A stretch of DNA of 64,000 nucleotides from positions 800,001 through 864,000 of the forward strand of contig CM000430.1 of assembly GCA_000165345.1 (NCBI GenBank). Direction: 5' to 3'. The notes below the pieces were generated by a model. It was not told where the DNA came from and did not search any database. It saw only the letters and a program-made list of their open reading frames with translations. The first letter of the stretch is position 1; every line of letters begins with the position of its first letter. Of this stretch, positions 4,206-47,352 are shown in pieces. The position numbers and the translations under genes were made by a program.

Positions 4206-4798
4206 AAATCAAAAGCAAACTGGAGAACAAGTTCCCGCCTAATTTTTCTTAGCTAAGAAAATCAAACATTTTATACGTGTACATATAATTAGTTTAGAAA
4301 TGGCTAGTCCAGCCCGAATCCTCGTAGCAAGTAAATTATACAAAATAAGCATTATATATATCAATAGTATTACAATGTACTCGATATAATCCCGCTTAGA
4401 AATTCTTTGAAGCTACACTTCTTTTCATGTTCCTCGCATTATCAAAGTATTGTAATAGCTATTAAAACCATAAGAGCTCTGCTAGTACGATTCTCTCTCT
4501 ACTTAATTCTAACCAGATAAAAATTGTCAATCGACAATAATCATTACCTAATCAATAGCATGTATGCGTAATCTGCATATAAAAATGCATATTGAAATTG
4601 GGTAAAATGGAAATGGTCAAAGCAACCAAGTAATGCATTGTTAACTATTATTACTATAATTGTGTATTTTTGCATTCATTTAGTTAAGTTGTTTGAAATA
4701 AGATGACTATTTTATGTAACTGGCTTCTAAAATTCTTTCAGAAAAGAAGCAAACATAAAAGTCAATCTTGTTTTGTGACCAGTAGTTTTTCATTCAAT

Positions 4799-5770
4799 CT
4801 ACAATGATCTCTTCTCCAAAACAATCTTTAGATTTCGTGCATTTAGACAAATATCCTCAAATTTTGTGTTAATTAATGAAAGTTGTTTAAATAACTCATC
4901 TGGTGTTGGTGACTCCTTCATCTTAATAGTCTTAACCAAAGACTCTGAAAACTCTCTTCCAAGTATATGAACTGCCTCCATTTCAATAATAGAGTCACCT
5001 ATTGAAATAAGATTAGTAATAGTCTCTGAATCTAGCTTTTTTTGAATCTCCAGAAATGCATTAAATTTCCATTTGTGATATGCCCCTGGATATTTATGTT
5101 CATACTTTGACCTTGCTGAAATAACTGTTAATCTTGATAAAACATCAACAACTTCTGGCATATACATTTTAGCAGAATAATCAACCCATCCCTCTGAAGC
5201 ATTAGTTATTAAAAATACGTTTCCCATATCCATAGCTTTGATAAGTAACTCAACTACGCATTTTTGAATTTGATTCATAATCATTTGTACATCCTCGGGA
5301 AGAAAAGTAGACAAAAAGTTATCAGAGCACCCACCTTGGCATGCAATAATATCCTTCTCTAGTTTACCTTGAGCTGAATCATTCACAACTTGTTGTGAAT
5401 TTGAGCTTCCACTAATTCTATTCCTTTTAGTTATCTGATAATTTAAGAATGTGGTGCAAAGTAAGGTATCATCCCAATCAAAAATTATTGCAGTTTGGTG
5501 CTTTGGCGGCCTATGTGCTGAAGGAACCCAAATTTTCAAATAACTCAATTTTTCCAAGTACTTGAGCCTTGAAGAGTCATTTTGAGACAAGTCCAATAGT
5601 CTGAATAAGAAATCATCATGCTCTTTTACCTCGTCTGTAGAATCGCCACAAGACTTTTTGGAACTATGAATCATTGAACGGTCATGTCCTGAAGCGTGTA
5701 CTCTCCTTTCCCCATCATTTTTGGTAATCCCCAATCTTAAAATTAGCCTTTCTCTTACATTATCTTTCAT
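4799..5770 (-). CDS. HAD-superfamily phosphatase-like protein (DxDxT phosphatase)
   Basis: The minus-strand ORF has its ATG at 5770..5768. HAD motif I is FDWDDTL; motif II is a Thr/Ser in VFLITNASEGWV; motif III is a Lys in SAKMY/ARSKYEHKY; motif IV is IGDSIIEME. An E2F-like GGCGGGAAA sits about 175 bp upstream at 5941-5949. Confidence 0.6.
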   Translation of the reverse strand: MKDNVRERLILRLGITKNDGERRVHASGHDRSMIHSSKKSCGDSTDEVKEHDDFLFRLLDLSQNDSSRLKYLEKLSYLKIWVPSAHRPPKHQTAIIFDWDDTLLCTTFLNYQITKRNRISGSSNSQQVVNDSAQGKLEKDIIACQGGCSDNFLSTFLPEDVQMIMNQIQKCVVELLIKAMDMGNVFLITNASEGWVDYSAKMYMPEVVDVLSRLTVISARSKYEHKYPGAYHKWKFNAFLEIQKKLDSETITNLISIGDSIIEMEAVHILGREFSESLVKTIKMKESPTPDELFKQLSLINTKFEDICLNARNLKIVLEKRSL

Positions 5771-13660: not shown

Positions 13661-13950
13661 AACTTTTTGTAAAACTACCGGTATTAGGAATTATATTATC
13701 ATTTTGAAACATCAAGACAGTAGAAAATTGCAAATAAGCTTACAAAATTAGAGCAAATCAATTAAATGATTTTTAACTCAATTCCTCTTTATTATCAACA
13801 ATGATGAGTGAAATATTACATTCTTCTCATTCTTTTAATGACTTTATAATGAGATAATATATTATTTTTGCCTTGCCGCCCCAAAGTTACGAAATATAAC
13901 ATGTATTGAAAATAAGAAAAAATAAATGTGACAAGGGTTTTGATATTAAA

Positions 13951-16900
13951 GCAATGAGAAATTGCGTTGAGGAAAATGGAGCAAATGGTGTGCAGAGCTT
14001 GATCAAGACATTTGTGAAAGAGGACCCTTCATTTGTGATTTTACAGTCCATTAAAAGTAGTAATTATTTGGAACTTACAGATGGAAGGCTTTTGGTATCG
14101 CATAACCCCAAATTAATAGCGAATTTGACAACTAAAGGTCAACTTAGTGTATTTCTAGATACTTCTAGAGGTGAAATTGAAAATATTGATACTAGACAGA
14201 AGGATATTGTTTTAAAGGAAATTAAATTGCCATTTTTAAAAGAGAAAACTGAGTCAAAAACTGTGATATCAGAAGCTATTTGGTGCAAGTCTATTATAAG
14301 AGAGGATCATCTCAGAGAGTATGAAGTTGCTCCAACTTTGGTTATTCTTGAAAAAACAACAGAGTATATCGAAAAAGACGTCAAATGCAAATACTGTAGT
14401 AAGTATTCAGGAAATCAGTTTTTGACAATAATACAGTTTTCTAGAATTGGAAACTTTGAGGATGGGGAATGTGAAATAATTGAATTGAATGCAAAGAATA
14501 ATTTGGAAAATGTAATCAACTTTAATAGGCCAATATCTATTGATTTTGAAGTTACAAATACTCATAAACCACCTATTTCAAATCAAATGAGAACAATAAT
14601 CAGGTACAGTCGAATTCCAATTATAGATATATTCAATACTTTTTCTAATAAGAAAGCCCAATTTTCCGAAAGCCATAAAACTTGTAAAAGCTGTTTCTCA
14701 TTTAATAATGCTCAAACTTTTGTTGATAACTCCATGGAATCAGGTTTTGTGATAATTATGGCTAATTTGATAGTATTATCTTTGGATTTTATTCAAGGTA
14801 ATTCTTTAATTCTAAAAAGAAGGTTTCTTATTCAAGATTTTCGAGATCCCCAGATTCGCTTTTCTGGTTTTACAATACAAAGTGGATGGCTTGTTTCAGT
14901 ATCTATTGATACTTTGGAGCTATTAATTTGGAACTATTATCAGGGAATAGCCTTTAGAATGGTTAAACTGAGTGAAGATTACTTTGATTTCACAGTTTCA
15001 AATGAGTCAAGAGTTGATGTTTTTGTTACTCTTTCATTTGGAAAAGATTTATCCAAGTTATTTTTAGTCTTTGATGGCTTAAATGAAAATGCTTCCAGTC
15101 ATATAAAACAAGTTGGGATGTATATAATTGATTTAAATGCTATTTTTAGTCAAATTTTCTGCTCTAATTGTATTTTAAAATACTTGATAGACACAAGAAA
15201 AACTTCTGAAATGAGAATATCTGATCCAGGAACTGAATTGAAGAAAAAGTTGCAAATAAGCTCAGGAAGTATACCTCACGTACAATTATATGAAGAGTAT
15301 TCATCGCTCACAGTTTATCCTGAAGCTTTCCATTTTGGAAAAGAACATAAAGCTTTGGAAAAAATCATGAAATGTCTTTCGGAAGAATCTTGTCAATATT
15401 TAGACTCTTTAGATTGGGCAAAAAGCTTGAATCTAAAGTTGGATTTAACAAAATATGAATTTGGATGGCCTCTTTTGTTTAACAAAAGTTGGTTTTATGG
15501 AGATCTATTTTGCAATTATAAGATGAATCAGATCATTATTACTACAATTGAAAATATCATTGCAAGAAACAGCATCGGAGAAGATTTCATAGATAATTTT
15601 GAAGAGCTAAGTAATAATATATATTTAAAGACAATTTCTAGCCATTTAAAAAAGGTTTTAGAAGGGATCCCTGAAATTTTATTTTCGAAAACAATAAGTC
15701 CTAAACAAAGTAATAAGAATTGCTCAGAAATACTTGGAAATCAAGAAACTGATAATCATTTTCAACGTAAATTGATATCTCACAAAACTAGCTTTATATA
15801 CAGTCATTTAATTCCAATTACCATTGATGAATTTCCAAATCATGAAGAATTTCAATACGAGATTAGTTTTATCGATATTATTCCATCATCTGATACAGTT
15901 TTAATACAATTTTCTATTCGAGATTTACCTAAGAAGCATCTAAGCTTTTACATTTCTGAAGAAAGCAAAAATCTTTTTATTAATCAGTTAAGCTTTGAAT
16001 GTGAATATACTACGTTGATTATGGGTTTAACTAAAGTTATAGATTGGCATTACTTTGCACTGAAAGATGTTAGAAGGGAGAAATCTTACCTTGGTCTTTT
16101 TTCAAAAACTATAAGCTTACTTGGGCTCATTTATTCCACTGTAAGGTACCAGGATATTGACAATTTGCAAAAAATTTGTGAGTATAACAATGTAGATCCA
16201 TGCATTATTCCATTAATACAATTGGAAATAGGATTCAAACATGAAGAATTAAAGCTTATTAGCCTTTCTTTGGAAAATACTCCAATGATACTTAATCTAG
16301 AAATGGTTAAACTAGCAAGAAATATGTTGCAAGATGCTAATTTGCATTTATCTTTGGATTTTACAAGAGAATCATCCAAGCTTTTCCTTGATTTTTGCCT
16401 GGACAAAATCAAATATTATTCCGAGAATGAGTCAACAGAGATTTCTGAAGAAAAAAACCAACAAAAGTGTAAGGTTGATGAGTTTCTACAAGAAATTTCT
16501 TACTATTTGTCAGAATTTAGAATGTATTTAAATAAGACTTCAGAATTGACAACCTATGTAAAAGTTTGTGACAACATACAAAAAGGTGATCAAAATTCAG
16601 AGGATGAATTGATTAACGAAACAAACAAAGTAGCTGATGAAGATGGAAGTAATCATGATAATGAGATTTTGAGTAAAAATGAGATATTTATAAGAGACCA
16701 GATAATAATGGGACATTATTCAAGTTTAATTGATTGGTATTTAAAAAGTAGCAAAGATAAAAACCCTCAAGTATTTAGATTAAAAGTTTTACATGATATT
16801 TATAGACTGATTTGTACTTTAAGTACGAATTCTTTAACATTATCAATCCATATGTTGAGACAAATTGGTGAGAATACAACACAGTATCTTAAAAGCATTC

Positions 16901-19900
16901 TGTATTATACAAGTAGAAGAGAAATTAGAAGAAGACTAATTAACCATTTAAAGCACTTTGGTGCCTTAAATGATGATGATATTGCTCTTATTCAATTCAG
17001 TAATGAATTGGAGAGTTACTATCCAAATAATTGTTATTCTGTGGAAAGAAATAGGATCTGGACATCATTATTTACTTATTCTATTCCATATAATGTTTTA
17101 TCAGATTGTAACTTGGAAAATGAGTTCAAGGTTAATACTGATAATGAACTAATCATTCAAGAAAGTATAGAAGGTGGAGTATCCATCAATGATTGTTTTG
17201 TTTCTAATGAAAATTTAGACGAATACTATTTCTATGGAGGTATTGATCAAGGAAGCCATGTAAACAATCCTATTTTTTCGGCAATGACTTATCCATTTGG
17301 TGGATTGCAAGCTTTAAAGTCCGGATTCAAAATAAACCAGGAGTATAATTTACAATATCTTGAGGATTGTAGGAGAATTAAAAGTGTTACCAGTATCTCA
17401 GCCAAGAAATTATCAAATAATAAGGATGATGGTTATAGAACAGAAAACAAAGAAAATGTTGAAATTAGTAACAGAGACTTCTTTTATTCAAACTTTTCTA
17501 CTGAAGCTATTGCTACTTGGGAAGGTTTAAAGTGTTTTGAAATAGAAGACTACGATTTAGAATTAAATAATGACCTTTATATACAAGAAGGAATTTCAAA
17601 AGGGCAAGAGGTTGAAAATGATAGAATTTCTGGCAAAAATATGAATACAGTAATTTCTAGTATTCCTGAGCAAGAAGGAAATGATTTTATTCGTCTTAAC
17701 AATGGTAGACTGGTTTCTATTAAGAATTCAAGCTGTAAACAGTGTTTAGATTTGAACGAAGATGAAGAGCTTGAAATTGAGGAGGAGTTACTCAATTATG
17801 AAAATGAATTTGGGCAATTATTATTATCCAAAAATGATTCAAAAGAAAGTTTTTCTATATCTTCTCAAAAGGAGCATATATCTTCAAATTCATCAATTAT
17901 ATTATCCCCAAGCCCAATATCAAGCTCATTAGAGAAGATTCAGCTAAATACTACCAATTTTGGAGATCATAATTCTAAGAGAGGTGATCTAACATGGCTC
18001 AGACTTCAAAGACAAAGAAGAGAAATGATTAACAACAATTTCAACAATTTTGGTTATTTAAATCATTCACTAAAATTTTTGAGTGAATGGTCGTTTGATG
18101 TTTCTATTAGAGTAGTCATTGAAAAAACTCACCTTCAGGTTTGCTTTGTTTGGAACCGACTATTAAGAGGATTCCAAACCCCTCCAAAGAGAAATGAAGC
18201 TTTAGTATATTCTCTTTTGAATTTAATCATCAGGAAGACTACAATACAACTTTCAAATAACTTGGATTATGAAATTAATTTGCAAGTTGCAAAGACAATT
18301 ACTTCTAGTATTTACATTGCAGTATTTGGATTTATTTTTTCTCATTTTGAATGGAAAAATATTCCAGCTTCAATGAACTATTTGGATAATACACTTTTTC
18401 TAATGTTCAAATATTTTAATGTGGAAGAATCCTACAAGTATGAATTATTGAATGAAATAATTCGTCTCAATTTTAAGTATAGTCCGAAATTTATTGTTGA
18501 AGTGTTTTTGAATTCTTTAGATTCATCTGGAATTGTTCCAATACATCACTTAAAGGCTGATTTGTTGCAAGAGAAGATCAATCAAATTGAGATTGACAGA
18601 TATAATAATGTTAAATATATTCTTGATAAATGCATCAGATATGGTAACTATGGAATTTATCTTTTTAGATACTACTTAATGAAATCCAATGAATTCACTT
18701 CTAAAGAATCATTACATACTTTTTTATCAGTAATTGAGAATTCTAGAGAAACCAATATTAAAGAAGAAAATCAACAAAATCAAGTGGATTATACTGATTA
18801 TTTAAATACTATATATGTTTATCTAGATAGAAAGCAAGATATAATTTTGCTTTCTCTAAAACAGACTTTCAATTCCCTTAAATCAAGTATTGATGAGAAT
18901 ATTTATTTATCTCTCCTAAATGGCTGTACTGAAAATGAGTTTGAAGTTAAGAAGGAAGAAATAGATCAATTTGACCTTAAAAAGTTGGATAGTCCAGGAT
19001 TCATATTAAATGTCTTAATAAGGTACTTTAATAACTACTATGAAAGCGTGCCTGGACCTGATGAGAGAGAAGAGGAGAAAAGGGAGGAAAAGAAAGAGGG
19101 AGAGGAGAAAGAGGAGGAAGAAAATGAGGAAAAGGAGGAGAAAGAGGAAAAGGAGGAGAAAGAGGAAAAGGAGGAGAAAGAGGAAAAGGAGGAGAAAGAG
19201 GAAAAGGAGGAAAATGAAGAAAATGAAACGAAAGAAGAAAATAAGGATAAAGATATCGAACAATCAGAGTTTAAAGGAAAAGATAAAAGGATCAAAATAA
19301 CCCCATATTATATTCTTTCAATTTTATTTTCATTGGATATACCCAGAAAAGAGATATATAATCAAGAATTCTACCAATTTCTTAGAAAATTCTTTCCCTC
19401 TTTAGTAAAAGTATTCAGGGAAGCATTTTTAAAAGAAAAAGTATGCATTGATCAGATTCAAGGAGATTGTTTTAATAAAATGAATGCAAATGATAATAAA
19501 GAATTGAATTCAGATTCTTCAACATCATTTAATATTACTCAGATAATAAAAATGACAGATAAAAACTCAGACTCTTTGATAAAATTGATGGAATTGTATC
19601 CAGAGTTAAGAGAGAAACTTAAAGAAAACCCTAATAATACGGATGAATTTTTTGAAATATTTTCTGAAAACCTAAAAAAAGTAATAGAAGAAGAAGAAAA
19701 AGAAGAAGAAACAGAAAAATCATTCGAAATTTCTGAAGATAAATTAAGCTTACCTATATTACATTATATATCAATAGGAAGACCATTTTTTGCATTTAAT
19801 CTTTTATGTATGAGACATGCAAAATTTCATAATAGTTTAGAGTATAAACAATTTAAAAAGGAGGATTTAAAGTTCCCAGAATTGTCAATGGAAGAAAAGA

Positions 19901-22900
19901 TTGAAATTTATGAATCAGTATATACATTAGCAATTCGAAACTTTACCAGAGATACTGTTGTTTGTAGTAGTGTAATATTTATTTCTATGTTAGAATTACC
20001 AACAGAACTCTTATGTACTGATATAAGAGTTGCAAGATGTATATATCTTCACCAAATTCATAAGAAAGATGAAGGAGACATTAAATCTAAAGTAAATTAT
20101 GATACAAAAGAAATGGATATTCAAATAGATTCAAAGAATTCTGGAAAGATTAATGAAATTTGGAATTTATTTCTTAAATTTGGACCTCCTAAAATAAGCT
20201 CATATTTGGAAAACAATGATGATTACAATGATCAAGATATTCTTAAAGAGTTTCAAGATAACCAAAAGTACTCTAGTTCCTTATTTTCAGTATTAAAGAT
20301 GCTTGAAGAAGCAGCTTGGGCAACTGGTGATATCATAACAGGAGGTAATAATAATGAAGAAAACAATTCTGTTTCAGATCAAGACAATCAAAGTATTGAA
20401 AATGTTGATTTACTTCCACATACTCCCATTTGGCATCTAGTAGCAACTTTCTGTAGAATTCATGGATTACCAAGATCTTTGACTTTATTACATGAATTAG
20501 CTAGAAGAGGAGAATGGGTAGCATTTCTACAAGAATGTGATTCTCAGAAATGTCCATTAGAAACTGTTGGGAATATTATTAATGAGTACATGTCAGAGAA
20601 TCCTGTTTTAAAGTTACATTTAAAGATTGCATTAAAAATTAATGATGATAATGATAATCAAGTTAAAAGTAAGAGCGAATTCTTATATGAATCTAACAAA
20701 GAAAGTGACTATATTATTAGTTTAGTACAATGGGACAAGTTATTTTATTCCTTAAAATTGGATAATGTTGAATATAAGTTGGATGAAGAGAAGATTTCTG
20801 AGTTTTATGAATGGTCAGTTAAACAAGTTTTTAAAGAGATAATACAAGAAATGAGTGTTAATAGAGTTATACTATATTATTCACTTTTTGAAGAGCATTA
20901 TTTGGACTTGGTTGAGAAATTTCCAAAGATGAAGAATAAATTCAAAGAATTAATAAATTCTTCAATTAATTCTTATTTATTAATAGAATTAATTAACACT
21001 TTATGTTATATTTCTATTAATGATAATATTGAAAACCTTCAAGATCATGATATATGGAAGGAAATCTTTGACTTTGAAATAATTCAGGGATTTGAAAACA
21101 TTCAAGGCTCAAATAATGAAATAAAACATCTTAAAAAGTTAGTACAAGAGTTTATATTATCAATTTTTCAAGGAAATAAGTTTGTTCAAATTCCAAATTC
21201 TTGTCAAGATAGAAATCAAATAATTTCAGATCATGAGACAGATATCAATTCAGATACTGATGAAGAAGATTTCTTATTAGAAGATAAAAGTGATTTGTTA
21301 TTAAATAGATTTGTTGAAGAAACTAAGGATGTTATGTTGAAGATGAATGAATTAAAACTAATCATAAGTTTAGATTCTTTGGATATACTTTTTAGGATTA
21401 TTGTTGATAATAATTGTGATGATGATACAAATCAAGATAGTTCAAGTTTAAGTATGACTGGAAAAACTTCAAAACTTATAAACAAAGATGAGACAACCAT
21501 ATTACTTTGGAAATTACTTTCTAATTTAAATGAAAGTGGATTGTTATGTAGGGCTTCAACTCTATTTTATGGAAAAGACACTCAAATAACAATGATTTTC
21601 AATACTATTGAAGCTTTATATTCATATGATGTGGAAAAAGCAACAGAGAATTTGAATAAAGTCTTAATTTGTAATCAATTCGATTTAGAAAGGAATAGAC
21701 AAATTTTTGGATTTTTACCACGTAAGGATTTAGTGAAAAATTACTTTGAGCAAGAGTTTTTGGGATTATATGGTAAAATAACAGTAGAAGATCATAGAAT
21801 ATTATGGAAGATTTTAAGCGAGTTAAGTTTGGAAAACAGATATCCAAAAAATGAAACTCTTTTTTTTGATATAGAAAACCATGGATATAGAAGACATATT
21901 ATAGATATATTATATTTGAATCTGGATGATTATCAAGTCACTTTTGAACAATTTGAAAATTGGTTATGTGTACCTGAGAAGACTCTATTAAAAGATTTTT
22001 ATCACCAGCAAAAGTATGCATTACTTTTAAAATATTTGGAGGAGTCATCTTCTGCATCATGTAGAACATTATTGAATGATGAAGAAGTTTTTAATTGGTT
22101 AGAAGGTTCATTTTTGAGTGATATTGCAAATGAATTGGAGATATTTTCAACAAATATTAACTTTAAGTCATCATTACAGAGAATAGAATTCATTAAGAGT
22201 TATTTTTGGTCTGAATTGAAGAATTTATCTATTTCAATTCAAAAGATCTCTATGGAATTGACTCCTTTATTTTTACTTAAGATCTCAATTTTTTGTTGGT
22301 ATTTCTTTGAAAAACTGGAAAGATGGCTTTCAACTTTTGACCAAGTTATCTTAATTTCTATTTCTATTCATTTTATATTGGAGACTTTAGAAATTATGGA
22401 CTTAAGAAAATCAATAGATTTCAAACCTTTGAATAATATGGAAAATGATTATGGAAATGATAACATGGATAATAATGACTACGGGAATGGTATTAATACT
22501 ACTAGTGATCAAACCAGTTACGAATATAGAAAAGAAGTTGAAAATATAAAAAGCAGAATATTAGAATTTGTTCCAAAGTATTTTGATCAGAAGTATGTTC
22601 AAGAGTGTCTAAAATATGCAAGTTATAAGCTATTTATGTTGCTTTTATCTAATATTAATATTCAAGATTTAAGAAAAAGTAAAGTAAAAACAATATTACA
22701 AGGATTAAGTGAATTAATTTCTCAAATAGGAAAAAATAAATTAAAATTCACAGATTTTGAATTTGAATATAATTCACAATATTTTGATTTACTTGAAGAA
22801 ATTTTCCTCTCTAGTAGAGGAAATCCAGTAATATTTACTCCATCTGGATATTTTAATTTCAAGAATGTAACCATAGAAGTCCCCTTTAGTATACAAATCC

Positions 22901-25800
22901 CAAGTAAAATTTCATTGGTTGATCATCCTGTTGATTCAAAGAATGTTCACAATTCTGTTGAAAATATTGTTAATTACATGTTTGATATTGATTTAGCATT
23001 TAACATTGGCATGAGATTTATTCCTAATATGAAAAACAAACTGGAAGTTTCTAAACAAAGATTTTATCGAAAATTCAAAATATTTACTCAAAAACTTTAC
23101 AATAATAATGATACAAAGTCTATGGATTCATCAGGGAATTCAGATTCAAATAATAATACTGATATTTTAAATCTAGAAAATACTTCAACCTCTTCTTCAA
23201 TTAATTTAAGTAGAAGCTTGCAAGCTTGGGATTCAATTACAGATTATTTGATTGAAATGTACTATATCTCTTCAATATTTACAAGAGTTATTTTTATATG
23301 GTTATTTCAAAGTTTTGGTAAAAGTCAATTAAATGATTTAATACATAAAGAGCTTGAAAATAGTAAATCTTCAGAAATAAATAATTTTAATAAATTTCTG
23401 ATCAAGTCTATTAAATATACAGAATCATCTTCATCACCTTCTTCTTCTAAATCAAATCAAAAAGAAAGTGTTAATATTGTTTGGAGAAGTTTTATGTTGG
23501 CTTTTAGTGAAGCTGAAGAACTTTCTTTATCTAATGTTACATATAGAATGAAATTACAATCAATTTTGACATTATTTCAATTTACCAATCAAGTTGATCA
23601 TATTTCAAGATCTAAATACTCATATTATATAGAAAGTATAAGAGAAAAAGTTATTGGAATACTTGAAGATTCTGGTTTTTCAGAAAATTACTTAATTGAA
23701 GATCTTAATAACTTGGGAAATTTTGATGAATCGAATTTATTAAAGATTTCAATATTTATACTTAAAATATTTTCATCAAATGAGGTTATTCCTATTTTCA
23801 AGAAGATATTGGAATTATCTATTCTTTTTGAATATATTCATACAGAAAATGATAAAACTCATATAATTAAATTTAAAACAGTACAAAAATGTCTTAAAGT
23901 TATATTAATAAATAATACTTATATAGAAAAAAAACAATTGGATAATATGCTTATAGAATTAATTAAAGAAATTATTGAACAATTTCATAACAAGCCTTTT
24001 ATAACATCAATATTATATCAAATATGCCAGTTAATTATGAATCCTGATACAGTAATGGAAACTTTGACAGAAGATATTGAATTAAATCAAATTAATAATG
24101 AAGTTGGAATAGTAAAGATTAGAGAATCAATATATTTACATTTAACAAGATATTATTTAGTAATGATAGATTTTCATGAAGAAGGTATTTCAAAAGATGA
24201 TGAATATAGTCAAAGAATAATAAATGATACAATTTCTAAAATAGATCAATTATTAACACATCATTCTAAACAAGAATTTGATTTGGTATTATTCACAAAT
24301 ATATTATTAGAGATTCCAGAAATTCCTTCACTTGAAGAATTAACTTCAAATCAAATTAATCAAGTTTTAATGAATCTTGATTTTGATACTAATAATGGAA
24401 CTTTACAAAATTCAAGTTCTCGTATATTACCTAGCAATTGGATTAGAGTATTAATTTCACAGCGTGTTTTAAATATATATAAAAAAAGAGAATTACAAGA
24501 TAAAAGTAATATTATTTTTGGATTATATAACAAACCAAATATAAATTTGATTGAAACAAAATTGAATAATCCTGATTTATTAGCAGAGTTTCTTGTAAAG
24601 AAATGTCTTTCAAATCAGTGGAAAACTGGCATAGATTTCATGTATTCAAAGTATGGTCAATATGATCTAATGATTGCATTACAAACTTTGATTGAGTCAT
24701 GTGAATTATTAAAGTTTACAGATTATCAGCAAACTTTTAGAGTTTATCAGAACTTAGCAGGACTATTTTCTTTACAACTTTATTTTGCTAGTTCCTATTC
24801 AAGAGTTAAGAATATTGATTTAAATTCTAATTTGGATAACTGTAAAACAATCCAAAATTTTTCAAATAATGGGATAATTAATCAAGAAACTAAAAAAAGT
24901 GTTTATGATCGGCTTTCTTGTATAGTTAAAAAAGAGGAATTGAATCAGCTTTTTGGAGATTTGTGCGAAACTAATAAGAGTAATAATAATGATATGGTTG
25001 GAAAAGGAACTTTGACTCAAGAAGATAGATATAGATTTGAAACAGAAAAGATTCGACTTCTCAATTTAGATCTGGTTGAATTGTTTGAAGTTGTATCAGA
25101 TCCACAAATTTGCTATAATCCAGCTATGATTATAGTAATATTAAATGGGTACGAGTCTATTTATGGACCTATAGTACATTCAGTATGGCCAAGAATATTA
25201 TTCATTCAATCAATCATTATAGGTAGGTTTAAGTTCTTGGATGATTATAAACACGAATTTGGAGCTTTGAACGAAGAGATTTTATTATCTATGATTAGAT
25301 TGTATAACAATTCACTTAATGAAGATAATGATGATAACTTGGAAAAAATCAATGGAATGACTTTTTATGACTTTATCAAGTCTAATGATGATGGTAATAA
25401 TAGTAGTATATTTGAAAGTTCTGAAGAAACTTTAAGAGTTGAATTTGATAGTCAGGAATTGGCATTTTACCATGGCTACTCAGATCTTGATCAAGATCTT
25501 GACCAAGATGAAGAACAAGATCCAGAACAAGAAGATTGCCATAACCCTAATATTTACGATTTAGCATTAAGTTGGAATGAGAGAGGGACTAGAGAAAAAC
25601 TTTCAAAGATGAAGAATGAAGAAATTCTCTCAAATTGGACAAAATTAATTCAAAACTACATAGAAGATTTACAACTTAGAATTTCTGTATGTAAAATGGT
25701 AGATGAGGATGGACTTTCAAATGTAATCCTTTTAAACAAGAAGTTATATAATGACAAGTCACTTTACAAGTTTAATTTGACAAACAATATTGATTGCTAG
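13951..25800 (+). CDS. Giant hypothetical protein (about 3950 aa), single exon, with an internal acidic (EEKEEK)n repeat
   Basis: An uninterrupted 11.9-kb ORF. The track starts it at a TTG at 13906; the first in-frame ATG is at 13951. No catalytic or Walker motifs were recognised. Composition suggests an N-terminal beta-rich region followed by a long alpha-helical body. The GAGGAGAAAGAGGAAAAG tandem at about 19069-19240 encodes the EEKEEK repeat. Confidence 0.7.
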   Translation, partial: AMRNCVEENGANGVQSLIKTFVKEDPSFVILQSIKSSNYLELTDGRLLVSHNPKLIANLTTKGQLSVFLDTSRGEIENIDTRQKDIVLKEIKLPFLKEKTESKTVISEAIWCKSIIREDHLREYEVAPTLVILEKTTEYIEKDVKCKYCSKYSGNQFLTIIQFSRIGNFEDGECEIIELNAKNNLENVINFNRPISIDFEVTNTHKPPISNQMRTIIRYSRIPIIDIFNTFSNKKAQFSESHKTCKSCFSFNNAQTFVDNSMESGFVIIMANLIVLSLDFIQGNSLILKRRFLIQDFRDPQIRFSGFTIQSGWLVSVSIDTLELLIWNYYQGIAFRMVKLSEDYFDFTVSNESRVDVFVTLSFGKDLSKLFLVFDGLNENASSHIKQVGMYIIDLNAIFSQIFCSNCILKYLIDTRKTSEMRISDPGTELKKKLQISSGSIPHVQLYEEYSSLTVYPEAFHFGKEHKALEKIMKCLSEESCQYLDSLDWAKSLNLKLDLTKYEFGWPLLFNKSWFYGDLFCNYKMNQIIITTIENIIARNSIGEDFIDNFEELSNNIYLKTISSHLKKVLEGIPEILFSKTISPKQSNKNCSEILGNQETDNHFQRKLISHKTSFIYSHLIPITIDEFPNHEEFQYEISFIDIIPSSDTVLIQFSIRDLPKKHLSFYISEESKNLFINQLSFECEYTTLIMGLTKVIDWHYFALKDVRREKSYLGLFSKTISLLGLIYSTVRYQDIDNLQKICEYNNVDPCIIPLIQLEIGFKHEELKLISLSLENTPMILNLEMVKLARNMLQDANLHLSLDFTRESSKLFLDFCLDKIKYYSENESTEISEEKNQQKCKVDEFLQEISYYLSEFRMYLNKTSELTTYVKVCDNIQKGDQNSEDELINETNKVADEDGSNHDNEILSKNEIFIRDQIIMGHYSSLIDWYLKSSKDKNPQVFRLKVLHDIYRLICTLSTNSLTLSIHMLRQIGENTTQYLKSILYYTSRREIRRRLINHLKHFGALNDDDIALIQFSNELESYYPNNCYSVERNRIWTSLFTYSIPYNVLSDCNLENEFKVNTDNELIIQESIEGGVSINDCFVSNENLDEYYFYGGIDQGSHVNNPIFSAMTYPFGGLQALKSGFKINQEYNLQYLEDCRRIKSVTSISAKKLSNNKDDGYRTENKENVEISNRDFFYSNFSTEAIATWEGLKCFEIEDYDLELNNDLYIQEGISKGQEVENDRISGKNMNTVISSIPEQEGNDFIRLNNGRLVSIKNSSCKQCLDLNEDEELEIEEELLNYENEFGQLLLSKNDSKESFSISSQKEHISSNSSIILSPSPISSSLEKIQLNTTNFGDHNSKRGDLTWLRLQRQRREMINNNFNNFGYLNHSLKFLSEWSFDVSIRVVIEKTHLQVCFVWNRLLRGFQTPPKRNEALVYSLLNLIIRKTTIQLSNNLDYEINLQVAKTITSSIYIAVFGFIFSHFEWKNIPASMNYLDNTLFLMFKYFNVEESYKYELLNEIIRLNFKYSPKFIVEVFLNSLDSSGIVPIHHLKADLLQEKINQIEIDRYNNVKYILDKCIRYGNYGIYLFRYYLMKSNEFTSKESLHTFLSVIENSRETNIKEENQQNQVDYTDYLNTIYVYLDRKQDIILLSLKQTFNSLKSSIDENIYLSLLNGCTENEFEVKKEEIDQFDLKKLDSPGFILNVLIRYFNNYYESVPGPDEREEEKREEKKEGEEKEEEENEEKEEKEEKEEKEEKEEKEEKEEKEEKEENEENETKEENKDKDIEQSEFKGKDKRIKITPYYILSILFSLDIPRKEIYNQEFYQFLRKFFPSLVKVFREAFLKEKVCIDQIQGDCFNKMNANDNKELNSDSSTSFNITQIIKMTDKNSDSLIKLMELYPELREKLKENPNNTDEFFEIFSENLKKVIEEEEKEEETEKSFEISEDKLSLPILHYISIGRPFFAFNLLCMRHAKFHNSLEYKQFKKEDLKFPELSMEEKIEIYESVYTLAIRNFTRDTVVCSSVIFISMLELPTELLCTDIRVARCIYLHQIHKKDEGDIKSKVNYDTKEMDIQIDSKNSGKINEIWNLFLKFGPPKISSYLENNDDYNDQDILKEFQDNQKYSSSLFSVLKMLEEAAWATGDIITGGNNNEENNSVSDQDNQSIENVDLLPHTPIWHLVATFCRIHGLPRSLTLLHELARRGEWVAFLQECDSQKCPLETVGNIINEYMSENPVLKLHLKIALKINDDNDNQVKSKSEFLYESNKESDYIISLVQWDKLFYSLKLDNVEYKLDEEKISEFYEWSVKQVFKEIIQEMSVNRVILYYSLFEEHYLDLVEKFPKMKNKFKELINSSINSYLLIELINTLCYISINDNIENLQDHDIWKEIFDFEIIQGFENIQGSNNEIKHLKKLVQEFILSIFQGNKFVQIPNSCQDRNQIISDHETDINSDTDEEDFLLEDKSDLLLNRFVEETKDVMLKMNELKLIISLDSLDILFRIIVDNNCDDDTNQDSSSLSMTGKTSKLINKDETTILLWKLLSNLNESGLLCRASTLFYGKDTQITMIFNTIEALYSYDVEKATENLNKVLICNQFDLERNRQIFGFLPRKDLVKNYFEQEFLGLYGKITVEDHRILWKILSELSLENRYPKNETLFFDIENHGYRRHIIDILYLNLDDYQVTFEQFENWLCVPEKTLLKDFYHQQKYALLLKYLEESSSASCRTLLNDEEVFNWLEGSFLSDIANELEIFSTNINFKSSLQRIEFIKSYFWSELKNLSISIQKISMELTPLFLLKISIFCWYFFEKLERWLSTFDQVILISISIHFILETLEIMDLRKSIDFKPLNNMENDYGNDNMDNNDYGNGINTTSDQTSYEYRKEVENIKSRILEFVPKYFDQKYVQECLKYASYKLFMLLLSNINIQDLRKSKVKTILQGLSELISQIGKNKLKFTDFEFEYNSQYFDLLEEIFLSSRGNPVIFTPSGYFNFKNVTIEVPFSIQIPSKISLVDHPVDSKNVHNSVENIVNYMFDIDLAFNIGMRFIPNMKNKLEVSKQRFYRKFKIFTQKLYNNNDTKSMDSSGNSDSNNNTDILNLENTSTSSSINLSRSLQAWDSITDYLIEMYYISSIFTRVIFIWLFQSFGKSQLNDLIHKELENSKSSEINNFNKFLIKSIKYTESSSSPSSSKSNQKESVNIVWRSFMLAFSEAEELSLSNVTYRMKLQSILTLFQFTNQVDHISRSKYSYYIESIREKVIGILEDSGFSENYLIEDLNNLGNFDESNLLKISIFILKIFSSNEVIPIFKKILELSILFEYIHTENDKTHIIKFKTVQKCLKVILINNTYIEKKQLDNMLIELIKEIIEQFHNKPFITSILYQICQLIMNPDTVMETLTEDIELNQINNEVGIVKIRESIYLHLTRYYLVMIDFHEEGISKDDEYSQRIINDTISKIDQLLTHHSKQEFDLVLFTNILLEIPEIPSLEELTSNQINQVLMNLDFDTNNGTLQNSSSRILPSNWIRVLISQRVLNIYKKRELQDKSNIIFGLYNKPNINLIETKLNNPDLLAEFLVKKCLSNQWKTGIDFMYSKYGQYDLMIALQTLIESCELLKFTDYQQTFRVYQNLAGLFSLQLYFASSYSRVKNIDLNSNLDNCKTIQNFSNNGIINQETKKSVYDRLSCIVKKEELNQLFGDLCETNKSNNNDMVGKGTLTQEDRYRFETEKIRLLNLDLVELFEVVSDPQICYNPAMIIVILNGYESIYGPIVHSVWPRILFIQSIIIGRFKFLDDYKHEFGALNEEILLSMIRLYNNSLNEDNDDNLEKINGMTFYDFIKSNDDGNNSSIFESSEETLRVEFDSQELAFYHGYSDLDQDLDQDEEQDPEQEDCHNPNIYDLALSWNERGTREKLSKMKNEEILSNWTKLIQNYIEDLQLRISVCKMVDEDGLSNVILLNKKLYNDKSLYKFNLTNNIDC
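19069..19240 (+). repeat. Coding tandem repeat (GAGGAGAAAGAGGAAAAG)n encoding an EEKEEK acidic repeat inside the giant ORF
   Basis: Direct 18-bp periodicity. It generates three mirror artefact ORFs in the track (19015..19263-, 19038..19295-, 19040..19300+). Confidence 0.8.
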
Positions 25801-43432: not shown

Positions 43433-44158
43433 AACATGCAACATCATTATATAAATATATATACGTGCACAGTATATATTATATTTATTATTTCTATAAT
43501 AGGTTAGAAATTATCTTAAAAAAAAAAAAACGTTATATTTTTTCCCTTCCCACTTAATATATATATATATATTTCTTATTTTTTTCTCCTTCAGTCATGA
43601 ACAACATAATTGATATAATAATGAAAAAAGAAAAGTTACACGCATTTCATAAGTATTTTATTAAGAGAATCAGCTTAATAGTCAGCTGTGCGCGCCTAAT
43701 TATTCAATTACATGCAAATTAAAATGCAAATTTTTCTCCCATTATTTTTTTTTTTTCATGCAATGAATTTACTGATGTCTGTTTTCATTTTAAAAACAAC
43801 AAAATAATTATTTTATTTCCCGCTCATCTCGAATAATTTATTAGGCGGGCTATTTGCGAATTTTAATAGTAACAATAGAAGTAGGGCTCGAAGATGATTA
43901 TCGAGTCCAAATATAAATAATGAAATGATATTTAAATGGTTAGGTTTTTAGTAATGATATTAATAGAAATAATAAAATCTCTCCATCAAAAAATTGCAAA
44001 TTAGTGTTAAATTTATGTTTGATTTTTTCATACATTAAAAAAAAAGAAATAGTAAATTTTTATTATTTTAAAAATCGTTGAAGTTAAAAAAAAAAAAAAA
44101 ATTAGAAAGAAATTGTAAATAAATATTTATTTAAAGAAGATAATAGTAAGGAAGAAAA

Positions 44159-46078
44159 ATGGCTAATAGATTTCTTATTTTGAATATCATCTTATTGTTA
44201 ACCGGGGTATTATCACAAGATTCATTAAGGTAGTGTTTAAATTATTATAAAAACCATTTATGTATCATTTGATTACAAAATGGTTTAAAATTCTTTTTTT
44301 TTCTTTTTTAACTGGGGTTTATCTTTTAATATCTTATTTGAATTTAAATAAATTCTAGATCATCAAATGAATCTTTACAATTACTTGACGAGGCTATTAA
44401 CACAAATGATACATTCTTTGATACAAATAATGATACATCATTACATCAAAGTAAGTTTTCCTTAGTTTATTATTAATTAATTGAATAATTAACAAAAAAA
44501 ATTAAAGATTTCACCTTAGATAAAGTAAAAATTAAAAATAAAATAAATAGCGATAATGAAAATAAGAACAAAACCAGCATTAAAACCAAAATTGAAGAAG
44601 AATCTGATGAATCTTTGACAAATTTGGAGTATAATTCCGAAAATAATAATACCAATTTTATAATGCCTTTCCAAAATAATATTTTAAAACTAATTGATCA
44701 TCTTAGCATTAATATTGGAAAGATCAGTTTTGAAGGACTTAAGAATGTTATTAAAGGAAAATACGTTATTAATCCAATTATTAGCACAGAAAAAGAAACA
44801 ACTTTGGTAGATCAGAATACTGTGAGCGATGGTTTTGAAGGGGATTCATCAACTTCTTCTAATGGTACTGCTGAGCCAAAACCAGAATTATCTAAATATC
44901 CTGATGTTACTGTATTACCAACAGAAGTCTTCATTCCAGAAAATACCAAATCTTTTGAACCTGCTCATGCAAGAGGAGCTCTTGGTGTTATGCCATTGCC
45001 AATGCAACTACCACCACAACCACCAGCATCTCATTCTGAAGACAATTCACAAATTTCAACAATTATTATCAATGAATCAAACAACCATGGTGAACATATT
45101 CCCGAGACTGAAACAGCTTCAGAACAAGGTTTTGGTGGAAGGGATGATACATATGGACCAAATAATAAATATCATCATCATCATCATCATCATCATCCTT
45201 CTTATAATCATCATCATAAACATCATCACCAACACCGTCCACACCATCCACCATTTAATGGAGACAATTCCAGTTCATCATCGACATCAACTTCTTCTAC
45301 CTCTACTTCAACTTCAACTTCAACAACATCAACATCAACATCAACAACTACAACTACAACTACTACAACAACTACAACAACTACAACTACAACAAACGAA
45401 GAAGTGAATGCAGTTAAAAATATTGCTCAAAAGAGAAATTTAAGAAGATTAAAGAAAGTAGTTTTAGAAGATGAGGAAGATGAAGATGATGAATATCTAG
45501 ATGAAATTGAACAAGAAAGAGAAGACTCTAAAGAGGGTAATCAAGTAACTGAAGTTGGATTACAAATAACAATGCCTATAATAACTTTAATTGCTTCAGA
45601 AACTAAATATTGCGGAAATGGAGTTGAATATTTGAACGAATTATCTCTTAAATTTAGAGAAACAATTGGAAAATTATTTGATTTATCTTATGAAGAAGTA
45701 TTTATTGTTAAAATGACTTCTACAAATAAATCATTTGTAAATTGCAATGACAAGAATGCAGTACAAAAGGACAAATCTGGAGTTAAATTCACCTTTGTGT
45801 AAGTTTGTTTGATATATTTAATAACATTTCTAACATCAAATTTGTAGGATTGGAACAAAAATGGAAGGCTCACACATATTTAAAGTTTTGGAATTAGCAA
45901 TCAAGGATAAAGAATCTTTCCTTGTAAAAGAATTTGGAAAGGTAAGTTTTGTTCATAAAGAAGAATTTAAAGAAAATAATTCTTCTTATTTAAAATGATT
46001 AATTTTATTATTTTTACTAAATTATACTGAAAATTTCAATAGATTGGCTTCATTCAAATCTCTAAAAATATCGCATAA
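44159..46078 (+). CDS. Secreted His-rich / Thr-Ser-rich mucin-like protein, 5 exons
   Basis: Exon 1 (44159-44229) encodes the signal peptide MANRFLILNIILLLTGVLSQ. Exon 2 is 44359-44450. Exon 3 is about 44508-45798 and holds the body of ORF 44615..45802, with HHHHHHHHH, HHKHHHQHRPHH, (ST)n and a poly-Thr run. Exon 4 is 45848-45941 and exon 5 is 46043-46078. All introns run GTAAGT to YAG and phases are consistent. Confidence 0.5.
45172..45400 (+). repeat. Coding microsatellites: (CAT)n for poly-His, (TCAACA/ACTTCA)n for a Ser-Thr repeat, (ACAACT)n for poly-Thr
   Basis: Direct repeats in exon 3 of the mucin-like gene. Confidence 0.7.
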
Positions 46079-46799
46079 TTTGGTTTCATCATACGCATTA
46101 ACATAACTAATATGATGACCCCTTCCCACAAGAAATTCCCGCCTAAACGAGATGTCAATAACTACATATTTTTTTTTCTAATTTTATCGAGAAGAAATTG
46201 ATTTTTTTAAAAAATTGTTTTCATTCTCAATAAATTGAAAGTTTTTTGACGTAAATTTGTGTCCAAATAACTCAATTATTTTAGAAATGGCTTTTTAAAT
46301 AAAATATTGTGGGTTAATGTTGATTTGTTTGTTTATGTTTTCTTTTTTAATTAATTACTGTATTCCAAATTCGTGATGCTACTATTACATGCATTTTTAA
46401 TAGGAATAGTTGTTAAAGAGTATTATTAAAGCCCGCCCCACATATAGAAACATGCATGTATTTAAAGCGCCAAATATGAAGGAATATTTAAAAAAAAAAA
46501 AATAAATGCGAGTGCATAAATATAGTAAAAATGGTAATTTGAACAATAAAATGAAATAAGAAGCAATATATATAAGTATTAGCCAAATATTTAATTGTAG
46601 ATCTTCAATTATTAAGAGTTGAATTAATTTAGTTATAATGGGAGTGTAAGGTAAAGAATAAGAGAAAAAAGAAAATAAACAAAAGTAAAATAAAATAATT
46701 ATATTAAAAATAAATTAAATAATAAAAAAAAAAATACTGAAATAGCATAATTTATAAAATTATATTAAATCTCAACATCCATAATTCTTATTGATCCTC

Positions 46800-47114
46800 T
46801 CAAGAGTGTTGATTATTACTTTCATTGTTATGATGAGCATGAGAGTTATTTGTTACAAAATTGGAATATTCATGAAATGAAATAGTTCCAGAGTTATCAA
46901 CATCAATTTCCCAGAAAAATTGATGTAGCTCTTGTAAAGTTACAGAAGTTCTTATAATTCGAATTTCTTGAGCATCTATATACCCATCACGGTTTAAATC
47001 AAATTCTGAAAACTCTTTTTCAGTTTGAGAAAGTTCCGACTTGACACCATCAATTACTTGATTTATTACCAACAATATTGCAAAAAACAAATATGTCAAA
47101 AATCCTTTCGTCAT
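46800..47114 (-). CDS. Small EF-hand calcium-binding protein with an N-terminal signal/anchor
   Basis: The first ATG gives MTKGFLTYLFFAILLVINQVI; the track begins upstream at a TTG at 47168. Two canonical EF-hand loops are present: DLNRDGYIDAQE and DVDNSGTISFHE. An E2F-like TTTGGCGCCAAATT lies at 47353-47366 upstream. Confidence 0.6.
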   Translation of the reverse strand: MTKGFLTYLFFAILLVINQVIDGVKSELSQTEKEFSEFDLNRDGYIDAQEIRIIRTSVTLQELHQFFWEIDVDNSGTISFHEYSNFVTNNSHAHHNNESNNQHS

Positions 47115-47352
47115 TTTACTTGAATCTTTTTGCAATAAAATAACACCTTGAAGAATGCTTTTACTCAAATTTCATATGAAAGCAAAATCTTGGAAATAAA
47201 CACGTACATATATAAGTGTATATACTTATATTTAAATATACATATATATGCCCAGATATTTTAAAATATATTTTTATAAATATATTTTCTTAATTTATTT
47301 TTTCTGTCAATATCCTTCACTCACAAATTTGCCCCTTATTCTATATTGTCAA

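Follow-up and report, generated by a model that had tools for sequence, protein, structure and literature searches.

Introduction

What kind of protein does Cryptosporidium parvum make from a locus on chromosome 2 that combines a signal-peptide-like start with a His-rich tract and a long Ser/Thr tract, and is it the mucin-like surface antigen of the gp40/15 or gp900 type that an original prediction from the DNA letters had proposed? The locus occupies positions 44159-46078 of the forward strand in the window, by which we mean the whole 64,000-nucleotide stretch analysed here (GCA_000165345.1, contig CM000430.1, positions 800,001 to 864,000), an AT-rich eukaryotic DNA of 24-35% GC. It is the gene cgd2_3780 of C. 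parvum Iowa II, for which public records give no function, domain or localisation. The picture that we favour, and regard as reasonably likely when taken as a whole, is that of a secreted, glycosylated, modular protein that is cleaved into two pieces, one a stalk and the other a small SEA-like domain. The parts of this picture differ in strength, and are weighed separately below.

The locus is the five-exon gene cgd2_3780

With an offset of 800,000, the locus corresponds to CM000430:844159-846078(+). The CryptoDB entry for cgd2_3780, as quoted in the supplement of PMC11039866, has the same coordinates and a product of 527 amino acids and 58.9 kDa, and the spliced product computed here has a mass of 58,927 Da. 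In addition, the published cgd2_3780 primers for quantitative reverse-transcription PCR (qRT-PCR; Mauzy et al. 2012) match once each, at 45016-45036 and 45132-45152 in exon 3, and the neighbouring gene GST3 is cgd2_3730 (PMC7683740). Because coordinates, length, mass, primers and the GST3 neighbour all agree, the locus is cgd2_3780. The gene model is correct and equal to the public one; it was already known, and nothing is added to CryptoDB here. The exact spliced C. parvum protein had no identical entry in the protein collection searched.

The exons and introns are listed below, together with their counterparts in C. tyzzeri, Cryptosporidium sp. (Logan contig L002) and C. bovis (L003) where these bear on the model.

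44159..44229, forward strand: exon 1, 71 nt, ending in phase 2; start codon at 44159-44161; encodes the whole predicted signal peptide, MANRFLILNIILLLTGVLS/Q, and DSLR
44230..44358, forward strand: intron 1, 129 nt, GTAGTG..TCTAG, 17.8% GC; indels of 3, 1 and 5 nt against C. tyzzeri; the L002 donor is also GTAGTG
44359..44450, forward strand: exon 2, 92 nt; acidic and rich in N-glycosylation sequons, SSNESLQLLDEAINTNDTFFDTNNDTSLHQ
44451..44507, forward strand: intron 2, 57 nt, GTAAGT..TAAAG, 14% GC
44508..45798, forward strand: exon 3, 1291 nt; protein body, residues 55-485, including the 395-amino-acid frame from TTG
45799..45847, forward strand: intron 3, 49 nt, GTAAGT..TGTAG; position and phase shared with L002 and C. 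bovis
45848..45941, forward strand: exon 4, 94 nt; helix alpha-2 of the predicted C-terminal domain, including the peptide VLELAIK
45942..46042, forward strand: intron 4, 101 nt, GTAAGT..CAATAG
46043..46078, forward strand: exon 5, 36 nt including the TAA at 46076-46078; encodes IGFIQISKNIA, predicted to form the final beta-strand of the C-terminal domain

Joined, the five exons form a 1584-nt open frame of 527 codons and a TAA. All four introns run from GT to AG and are poorer in GC than the exons (14-20% versus 26-31%), reading through any of them meets a stop within 1-19 codons, and the ATG at 44159 is closely preceded by in-frame stops. The original prediction of one five-exon gene is thereby borne out, as is its open reading frame (ORF) of 395 amino acids from a TTG, which lies at 44615-45802; the peptides it quoted, MANRFLILNIILLLTGVLSQ and ...VIGTKMEGSHIFKVLELAIKDKESFLVKEFGK/IGFIQISKNIA before the stop, are exact. 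It was also right to assign both upstream exons to this gene. Its division of the signal peptide between them does not hold, as exon 1 alone encodes it and exon 2 contributes the sequon-rich segment. Exon 1 is kept in C. tyzzeri, C. canis, L002 and C. bovis, and exon 2 is 100% identical in C. tyzzeri with a homologous exon in L002 and C. bovis.

The 3′ end of the model is supported at the protein level. The first residue of the published peptide IGFIQISK is encoded by the opening codon of exon 5, before which the genome has an in-frame TAG; a tryptic N-terminus next to an in-frame TAG means that this peptide requires the exon 4-5 splice. The predicted C-terminal fold, which draws helix alpha-2 and its last strand from exons 4 and 5, supports the same arrangement. 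An ORF call on a Logan contig covering window positions 45861-46100 passes through intron 4 and gives Trp for a TGA codon of the window. The caller evidently applied another genetic code, and the call is genomic rather than transcript evidence.

Architecture of the predicted product

From its N-terminus the product comprises a signal peptide, an acidic sequon-rich segment, a conserved motif, a variable Pro-rich linker, a His-rich tract, a Ser/Thr tract, the basic motif KR[NS]LRRL, an acidic linker and a C-terminal domain of ~115 residues. The principal features are as follows.

44663..44824, forward strand: conserved N-terminal motif, residues 107-160, MPFQNNILKLIDHLSINIGKISFEGLKNVIKGKY.NP..EK..T..DQN; almost unchanged in four species, still discernible in C. 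bovis
45173..45247, forward strand: His-rich tract, residues 277-301, HHHHHHHHPSYNHHHKHHHQHRPHH; mostly a CAT trinucleotide repeat
45269..45394, forward strand: Ser/Thr tract, residues 309-350, 42 consecutive Ser or Thr of which the terminal 17 are Thr; imperfect repeats of 6, 9 and 15 nt; candidate O-GalNAc region
45431..45451, forward strand: basic motif KRNLRRL, residues 363-369; candidate furin/subtilisin-type (R-x-x-R) site
45467..45493, forward strand: acidic run EDEEDEDDE, residues 375-383, in a linker that reaches ~residue 396
45578..46075, forward strand: C-terminal globular domain, residues ~412-527, from the end of exon 3 and exons 4 and 5; invariant C423 and C467; predicted SEA-like

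Several observations indicate secretion, in keeping with what had been predicted. The N-terminus is signal-peptide-like, with R4, a hydrophobic core of 15 residues and then VLS/Q (hydropathy 1.78 over residues 5-23), and the C. canis ortholog carries the database name 'Signal peptide-containing protein'. Consistently, the DeepLoc result for cgd2_3780 quoted in PMC11039866 is 'Extracellular, soluble'. The 527-residue product contains no transmembrane segment, with all Kyte-Doolittle windows outside the signal peptide at or below 1.2, and no signal of the glycosylphosphatidylinositol (GPI) type, its C-terminus ...GKIGFIQISKNIA not being hydrophobic.

A long Ser/Thr-rich tract is typical of secreted mucin-type O-glycoproteins, and here such a tract lies downstream of the signal peptide; the Ser/Thr and poly-Thr stretches described earlier are real, corrected in detail to 42 unbroken residues. 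On C. parvum Gp20 and Gp40, runs of Thr and of Ser, respectively, are filled almost completely by the parasite's O-GalNAc transferases (PMC5549699), and this near-saturation makes the 42-residue tract a plausible O-GalNAc substrate. Gp20 is itself similar in being secreted and acidic with consecutive Thr. It differs from cgd2_3780 in its ~20 kDa size and its lack of comparable conserved domains, and its arrays are those found nearly saturated (PMC5549699), whereas for cgd2_3780 we infer O-GalNAc occupancy by analogy. On these grounds cgd2_3780 very probably encodes a secreted glycoprotein.

The His-rich tract consists of a run of eight His, not the nine counted earlier, followed by HHHKHHHQHRPHH. 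It recalls Plasmodium HRP2 and vertebrate histidine-rich glycoprotein, in which His runs are likewise broken by few other residues, and differs from both in spanning just ~25 residues with no AHH-like repeat unit. The metal or heme binding proposed for it is putative and stands unproven. Cryptosporidium is not known to digest haemoglobin. The acidic linker that follows the tracts and the basic motif is found in four species, and the whole protein has only two Cys, C423 and C467. For the N-terminal motif, AlphaFold2 predicts two short helices without a confident fold (predicted local distance difference test, pLDDT, 45.8).

Conservation and turnover across Cryptosporidium

The best database match is CTYZ_00002630 of C. 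tyzzeri, with 93% identity and identical N- and C-termini, and projection of the C. parvum exon coordinates onto C. tyzzeri DNA yields the exact translation of TRY52792.1. Indels between the two species measure 15, 3 and 33 nt in exons, all within the His and Ser/Thr tracts, and 3, 1, 5, 1, 3 and 5 nt in introns, and every splice site is retained. C. tyzzeri, C. canis, L002 and C. bovis all share the five exons together with their phases and splice sites, so that the gene is conserved in five species; in L002 (524 amino acids) and C. bovis (760 amino acids) the exons were rebuilt with canonical sites that agree in position and phase. The locus is syntenic in C. tyzzeri, L002 and C. bovis.

The deposited C. 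bovis model, FG379_002206 / KAH7648736.1 (535 amino acids), is truncated at both ends. Exons at 2304-2389, 2479-2636, 2696-4604, 4772-4865 and 4928-4963 of VHIT02000028.1:543259-550866 restore a protein of 760 amino acids that includes a signal peptide and the full C-terminal domain; over the exon 4-5 region, another gene, of 194 amino acids, is annotated. Where exons 2 and 3 meet, one of the two C. canis annotations has the additional residues 'RLISENNVD', which suggests that the annotator chose another way of splicing.

Beyond the genus the gene appears to have no relatives. An exhaustive HMMER search with the C-terminal domain against 1.84 billion representatives returned solely Cryptosporidium orthologs and one spurious repeat protein, and the family is therefore confined to the genus Cryptosporidium, single-copy and without paralogs. 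Word-indexed protein searches with the C-terminal domain and the N-terminal region gave almost no matches, and Pfam searches with the full protein and the C-terminal domain gave only low-complexity noise (New_glue, NAM-associated) below the cut-offs. In the literature we found no publications mentioning Q5CTA6, CTYZ_00002630 or FG379_002206.

Constraint is distributed unevenly along the protein. Against C. tyzzeri, the ratio of nonsynonymous to synonymous substitution rates (dN/dS) is 0.27 overall, 0.04 in the N-terminal motif and 0.21-0.45 in five neighbouring genes, and the C-terminal domain has two substitutions. As judged from these comparisons, the N-terminal motif and the C-terminal domain are evidently under purifying selection. 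The Pro-rich linker (residues 161-275, given as window 44988-45330) has nine nonsynonymous changes and one synonymous change against C. tyzzeri, with hardly any in the conserved stretches on either side; these counts are too small to call selection. Diversifying selection as a general feature of the gene was ruled out, the overall dN/dS lying in the neighbours' range.

Length variation, by comparison, is concentrated in the His and Ser/Thr repeats, as the original prediction of polymorphic coding microsatellites had anticipated. The C. tyzzeri His-rich tract has the 15-nt deletion and its Ser/Thr tract the 3- and 33-nt deletions, and in C. canis the Ser/Thr tract is far longer and different. 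Two C. canis isolates, KAJ1610828.1 and KAJ1615381.1, encode 592 and 672 amino acids, the difference of 80 falling in Thr-rich repeats and the His tract. A metagenome scan for the flank of the repeat, for comparison of isolates, gave no match.

This turnover raises the question of whether the tracts have a function at all. They could be neutral coding microsatellites in a disordered linker, with only the N-terminal motif and the C-terminal domain functional: they are encoded by CAT and ACN/TCN repeats, their length changes freely, and the Ser/Thr tract is present in C. tyzzeri, C. canis and L002 and missing from C. bovis, where the longest Ser/Thr run is 3. Yet the His-rich composition is kept in five of five species despite the turnover of its sequence, and C. 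bovis replaces the Ser/Thr tract by 41 N-glycosylation sequons, which preserves a glycosylated stalk. We therefore consider neutrality of the tracts rather unlikely. Since C. bovis does without it, the 'mucin' tract is, to judge from the aligned orthologs, not the conserved core of the family; the conserved feature seems to be a glycosylated stalk rather than the mucin tract itself.

Expression and protein detection

The locus is expressed, as qRT-PCR and two published peptides attest. In infections followed in vitro, the cgd2_3780 transcript stands at ~1-2e-5 relative to 18S rRNA; three of the four series show it flat between 2 and 48 h, and it falls to its minimum at 72 h (Mauzy et al. 2012). 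In the same table, gp60 reaches 2-7e-3 at 12 h and COWP1 rises 100-1000-fold to 1e-3-2e-2 at 48-72 h. The cgd2_3780 transcript is thus 100-700x below the gp60 peak and has no 12-h peak of its own.

At the protein level, cgd2_3780 was detected only in small extracellular vesicles from excysted sporozoites, alongside gp60 (PMC11039866). The supplement of that study lists two peptides, VLELAIK from exon 4 (ion score 49) and IGFIQISK from exon 5 (ion score 26), so that it is the C-terminus of the protein that is seen in shed sporozoite material. Both peptides occur solely in gel slice 8 of 9, a slice otherwise of 17-25 kDa proteins, and proteins of 70-100 kDa are found in slices 2-3 (PMC11039866).

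These data also bear on whether cgd2_3780 is an oocyst-wall or sporozoite-tether glycoprotein, His-rich like the COWPs and mucin-like like the proposed tethers. The His-rich and Ser/Thr-rich composition fits such a role, material from excysted oocysts yielded the protein, and the MPA lectin enriched six unnamed mucin-like oocyst glycoproteins (PMC5549699), of which cgd2_3780 could be one. The transcript, however, is at its minimum at 72 h, when COWP1 has risen, and with only two Cys the protein has no COWP-type Cys-rich repeats. A wall or tether function is accordingly very improbable.

Possible cleavage at a conserved basic motif

How could a predicted 59-kDa glycoprotein yield peptides from a slice of small proteins? 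The basic motif just past the stalk suggests an answer. In four species it reads KR[NS]LRRL, in C. bovis KRSLKTL, and its RNLR matches the minimal R-x-x-R site; gp40/15 is cut by a furin-like protease (PMC5549699). A fragment of cgd2_3780 starting at KRNLRRL would have a computed mass of 18.0-18.7 kDa and an isoelectric point of 4.7-4.9, which fits the slice containing both detected peptides. Slice mass and motif together support processing without proving it, and we rate proteolytic processing at the conserved basic motif as having an even chance.

The principal alternative is that there is no processing, that the peptides in the slice reflect degradation or gel trailing of the full-length glycoprotein, and that KRNLRRL is conserved for another reason, for example as a binding site. 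Just two peptide-spectrum matches underlie the assignment, and cgd1_3690 (88 kDa), cgd3_1540 (185 kDa) and cgd7_3120 (64 kDa) were also recovered from low-mass slices. Against this explanation, both peptides are C-terminal and confined to one slice, whereas at least six good tryptic peptides predicted in the N-terminal half were never seen; the predicted fragment mass fits the slice, and the R-x-x-R motif sits exactly between stalk and folded domain. We regard an uncut protein as possible, though the less favoured outcome. In supplementary table 1 of PMC11039866 (slices S10-S18), the aspartyl protease cgd1_3690 and several large secreted proteins appear only in low-mass slices of the small vesicles, which points either to processing of many secreted proteins or to partial degradation of the sample.

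The same motif admits a different reading, in which its RRL is TEXEL/PEXEL-like and is cut by a plasmepsin V/ASP5-like aspartyl protease for export of a host-targeted effector, as in MEDLE2. Four species share an unchanged RRL, C. parvum possesses three proteases resembling PMV/ASP5, and processing of MEDLE2 takes place at a leucine (PMC8687662). But C. bovis has KTL in place of RRL, the fifth position is not E, Q or D, and the fragment downstream is predicted to be a folded domain, while folded reporters block MEDLE2 export (PMC8687662); moreover, the neighbourhood is ordinary and housekeeping, with no subtelomeric effector cluster. We see only a very slim chance that cgd2_3780 encodes such an effector.

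Taken together, the secreted, processed glycoprotein that we favour would be made as follows. The N-terminal signal peptide would direct the product to the secretory pathway, where its N-terminal part would be N-glycosylated (10 sequons) and the Ser/Thr array densely modified with O-GalNAc by the parasite's four O-GalNAc transferases, forming an extended glycosylated stalk with the Pro-rich and His-rich stretches. A furin/subtilisin-like protease would then cleave KR-x-L-R-R just past the stalk, as in gp40/15, releasing a glycosylated N-fragment whose peptide part is ~38 kDa, together with an acidic C-fragment of ~18 kDa, which would contain a disulfide-bearing alpha/beta SEA-like domain. With no membrane anchor, the products would be soluble or peripherally attached at the parasite surface or host interface. 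A role in adhesion or in a protective coat is conceivable for them but doubtful.

Several findings weigh against this scheme. Protein evidence is thin, at two peptides with a single spectrum match each and 3% coverage; no N-terminal peptide was detected, leaving the N-fragment unobserved (PMC11039866). The low-mass slice could reflect degradation, as large proteins occur in such slices too. Neither the supplementary O-GalNAc glycopeptide tables of PMC5549699, whose authors note limited sampling, nor the supplements of the DG8 paper list cgd2_3780. Finally, the flat and low transcript profile looks unlike that of classical merozoite invasion or oocyst-wall genes.

The C-terminal domain

The domain that would be released lies after the Ser/Thr tract, basic motif and acidic linker, with no transmembrane helix downstream. 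AlphaFold2, applied to the C. tyzzeri segment (99% identical to that of C. parvum), predicts a domain with the order beta-alpha-beta-beta-alpha-(alpha)-beta, a pLDDT of 76.7 and a predicted template-modelling score (pTM) of 0.72. On the strength of this model, we call the C-terminal domain SEA-like with moderate confidence.

The searches that followed temper this assignment. The model rests on an alignment of just three sequences, and a Foldseek comparison with the PDB gave no significant match (best E 0.057, to generic ferredoxin-like folds, with the MUC16 SEA domain at rank 44). No match to Pfam SEA (PF01390) was obtained at E <= 10, a PDB profile search with the domain yielded only chance eIF2-alpha matches and no SEA signal, and the SEA autoproteolysis motif G/S[VI]VV is absent between beta-2 and beta-3. 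Strand beta-3 is instead preceded by G-V-K-F-T-F (D-V in L002), without a Ser, Thr or Cys nucleophile, and by a 20-residue loop with one Cys. Our literature search found no paper connecting Cryptosporidium with a SEA domain.

Identity to metazoan SEA mucins and SEA-like juxtamembrane modules (MUC1, MUC16, TMPRSS6, ADGRG6, dystroglycan and PCDH15 MAD12) is 6-15%. Where metazoan SEA domains have a tight hairpin, cgd2_3780 has the 20-residue loop, which is predicted to bear a disulfide, and it has neither the G/SVVV self-cleavage motif nor a following transmembrane helix. The likeness may be convergent, towards a widespread ferredoxin-like fold, an argument already made for bacterial SEAL domains. 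A true SEA-type domain on a glycosylated stalk, with the protein split at KR-x-L-R-R into mucin-like and ~18 kDa pieces that remain on the parasite surface or within shed material, is a tentative idea to which we give a low likelihood.

Comparison with gp40/15 and other surface mucins

The original prediction had likened the product to gp40/15 and gp900, and the comparison is instructive. In gp40/15 (gp60, cgd6_1080) of C. parvum and C. hominis, as in cgd2_3780, a signal peptide is followed by a homopolymeric Ser/Thr array, a basic site separates an N-terminal part, glycosylated in the former and predicted to be so in the latter, from a small C-terminal part, and repeat length is polymorphic. 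On the other hand, cgd2_3780 has no match to Pfam GP40 (PF11025), even at E <= 1, no paralogs that would support kinship with gp40/15 or gp900, and it departs from gp40/15 in its five exons, much lower and flat expression, His-rich tract, predicted folded C-terminal domain and want of a GPI signal.

A zoite surface mucin antigen of this type, abundant, bound to the membrane and heavily O-glycosylated, would account for the signal peptide and 42-residue tract, for repeat lengths that vary between species and isolates, and for the presence of the protein with gp60 in sporozoite-shed material. It is hard to reconcile with a protein that has neither a transmembrane nor a GPI signal, falls outside the GP40 family, lies so far below gp60 in transcript abundance with no 12-h peak, is missing from the O-GalNAc glycopeptides of PMC5549699, lacks the tract in C. 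bovis and evolves at a dN/dS like that of its neighbours. We consider it unlikely. The description of the product as secreted, Ser/Thr- and His-rich and length-variable holds, and the signal peptide and tract on which the mucin comparison was founded are present; the antigen reading itself is unproven and partly contradicted, because there is no anchor, no homology, low and flat expression, and no tract in C. bovis.

Neighbourhood of the gene

The neighbours of cgd2_3780 are housekeeping genes (bromodomain, BOP1, GST3, Sedlin, EF-hand, NIF phosphatase, formin and B-box) and form no subtelomeric cluster of secreted-protein genes. Its downstream neighbour, at window positions 46800-47168 on the reverse strand, encodes a small EF-hand protein (Pfam EF-hand_7 and others) and adjoins the cgd2_3780 ortholog in C. 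tyzzeri, L002 and C. bovis. From an internal Met it has a signal-peptide-like start, MTKGFLTYLFFAILLVINQVIDG, and may be a secreted calcium-binding protein.

Both intergenic regions flanking cgd2_3780 contain GGCGGG/CCCGCC and TGCATG-type motifs (at 43846, 46138, 46432, ~43720-43740 and ~46450), noted by eye and not weighed against chance. We take them to resemble the E2F-like and AP2-like promoter motifs of Cryptosporidium. Elsewhere in the window, positions 13906-25800 of the forward strand hold an ORF of 3964 amino acids with no Pfam match at E <= 0.001.

Implications

Cryptosporidium is a major diarrhoeal pathogen for which there is no vaccine, and cgd2_3780 is one of its uncharacterised genus-specific secreted proteins. 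The two coding repeats, which differ among close species and C. canis isolates, could serve as a typing marker on chromosome 2. If a true SEA-type domain were present on a glycosylated stalk and the protein were split as proposed, cgd2_3780 would bring the mucin-SEA architecture to an apicomplexan, and so outside animals, and the gene would supply a second two-piece glycoprotein in the style of gp40/15, its His and Thr tracts varying in length, that could serve as an antigen or as a target for typing. Should both the SEA-like domain and a cleavage like that of gp40/15 be real, cgd2_3780 would be a tractable candidate for a component of the zoite coat or of the host interface.

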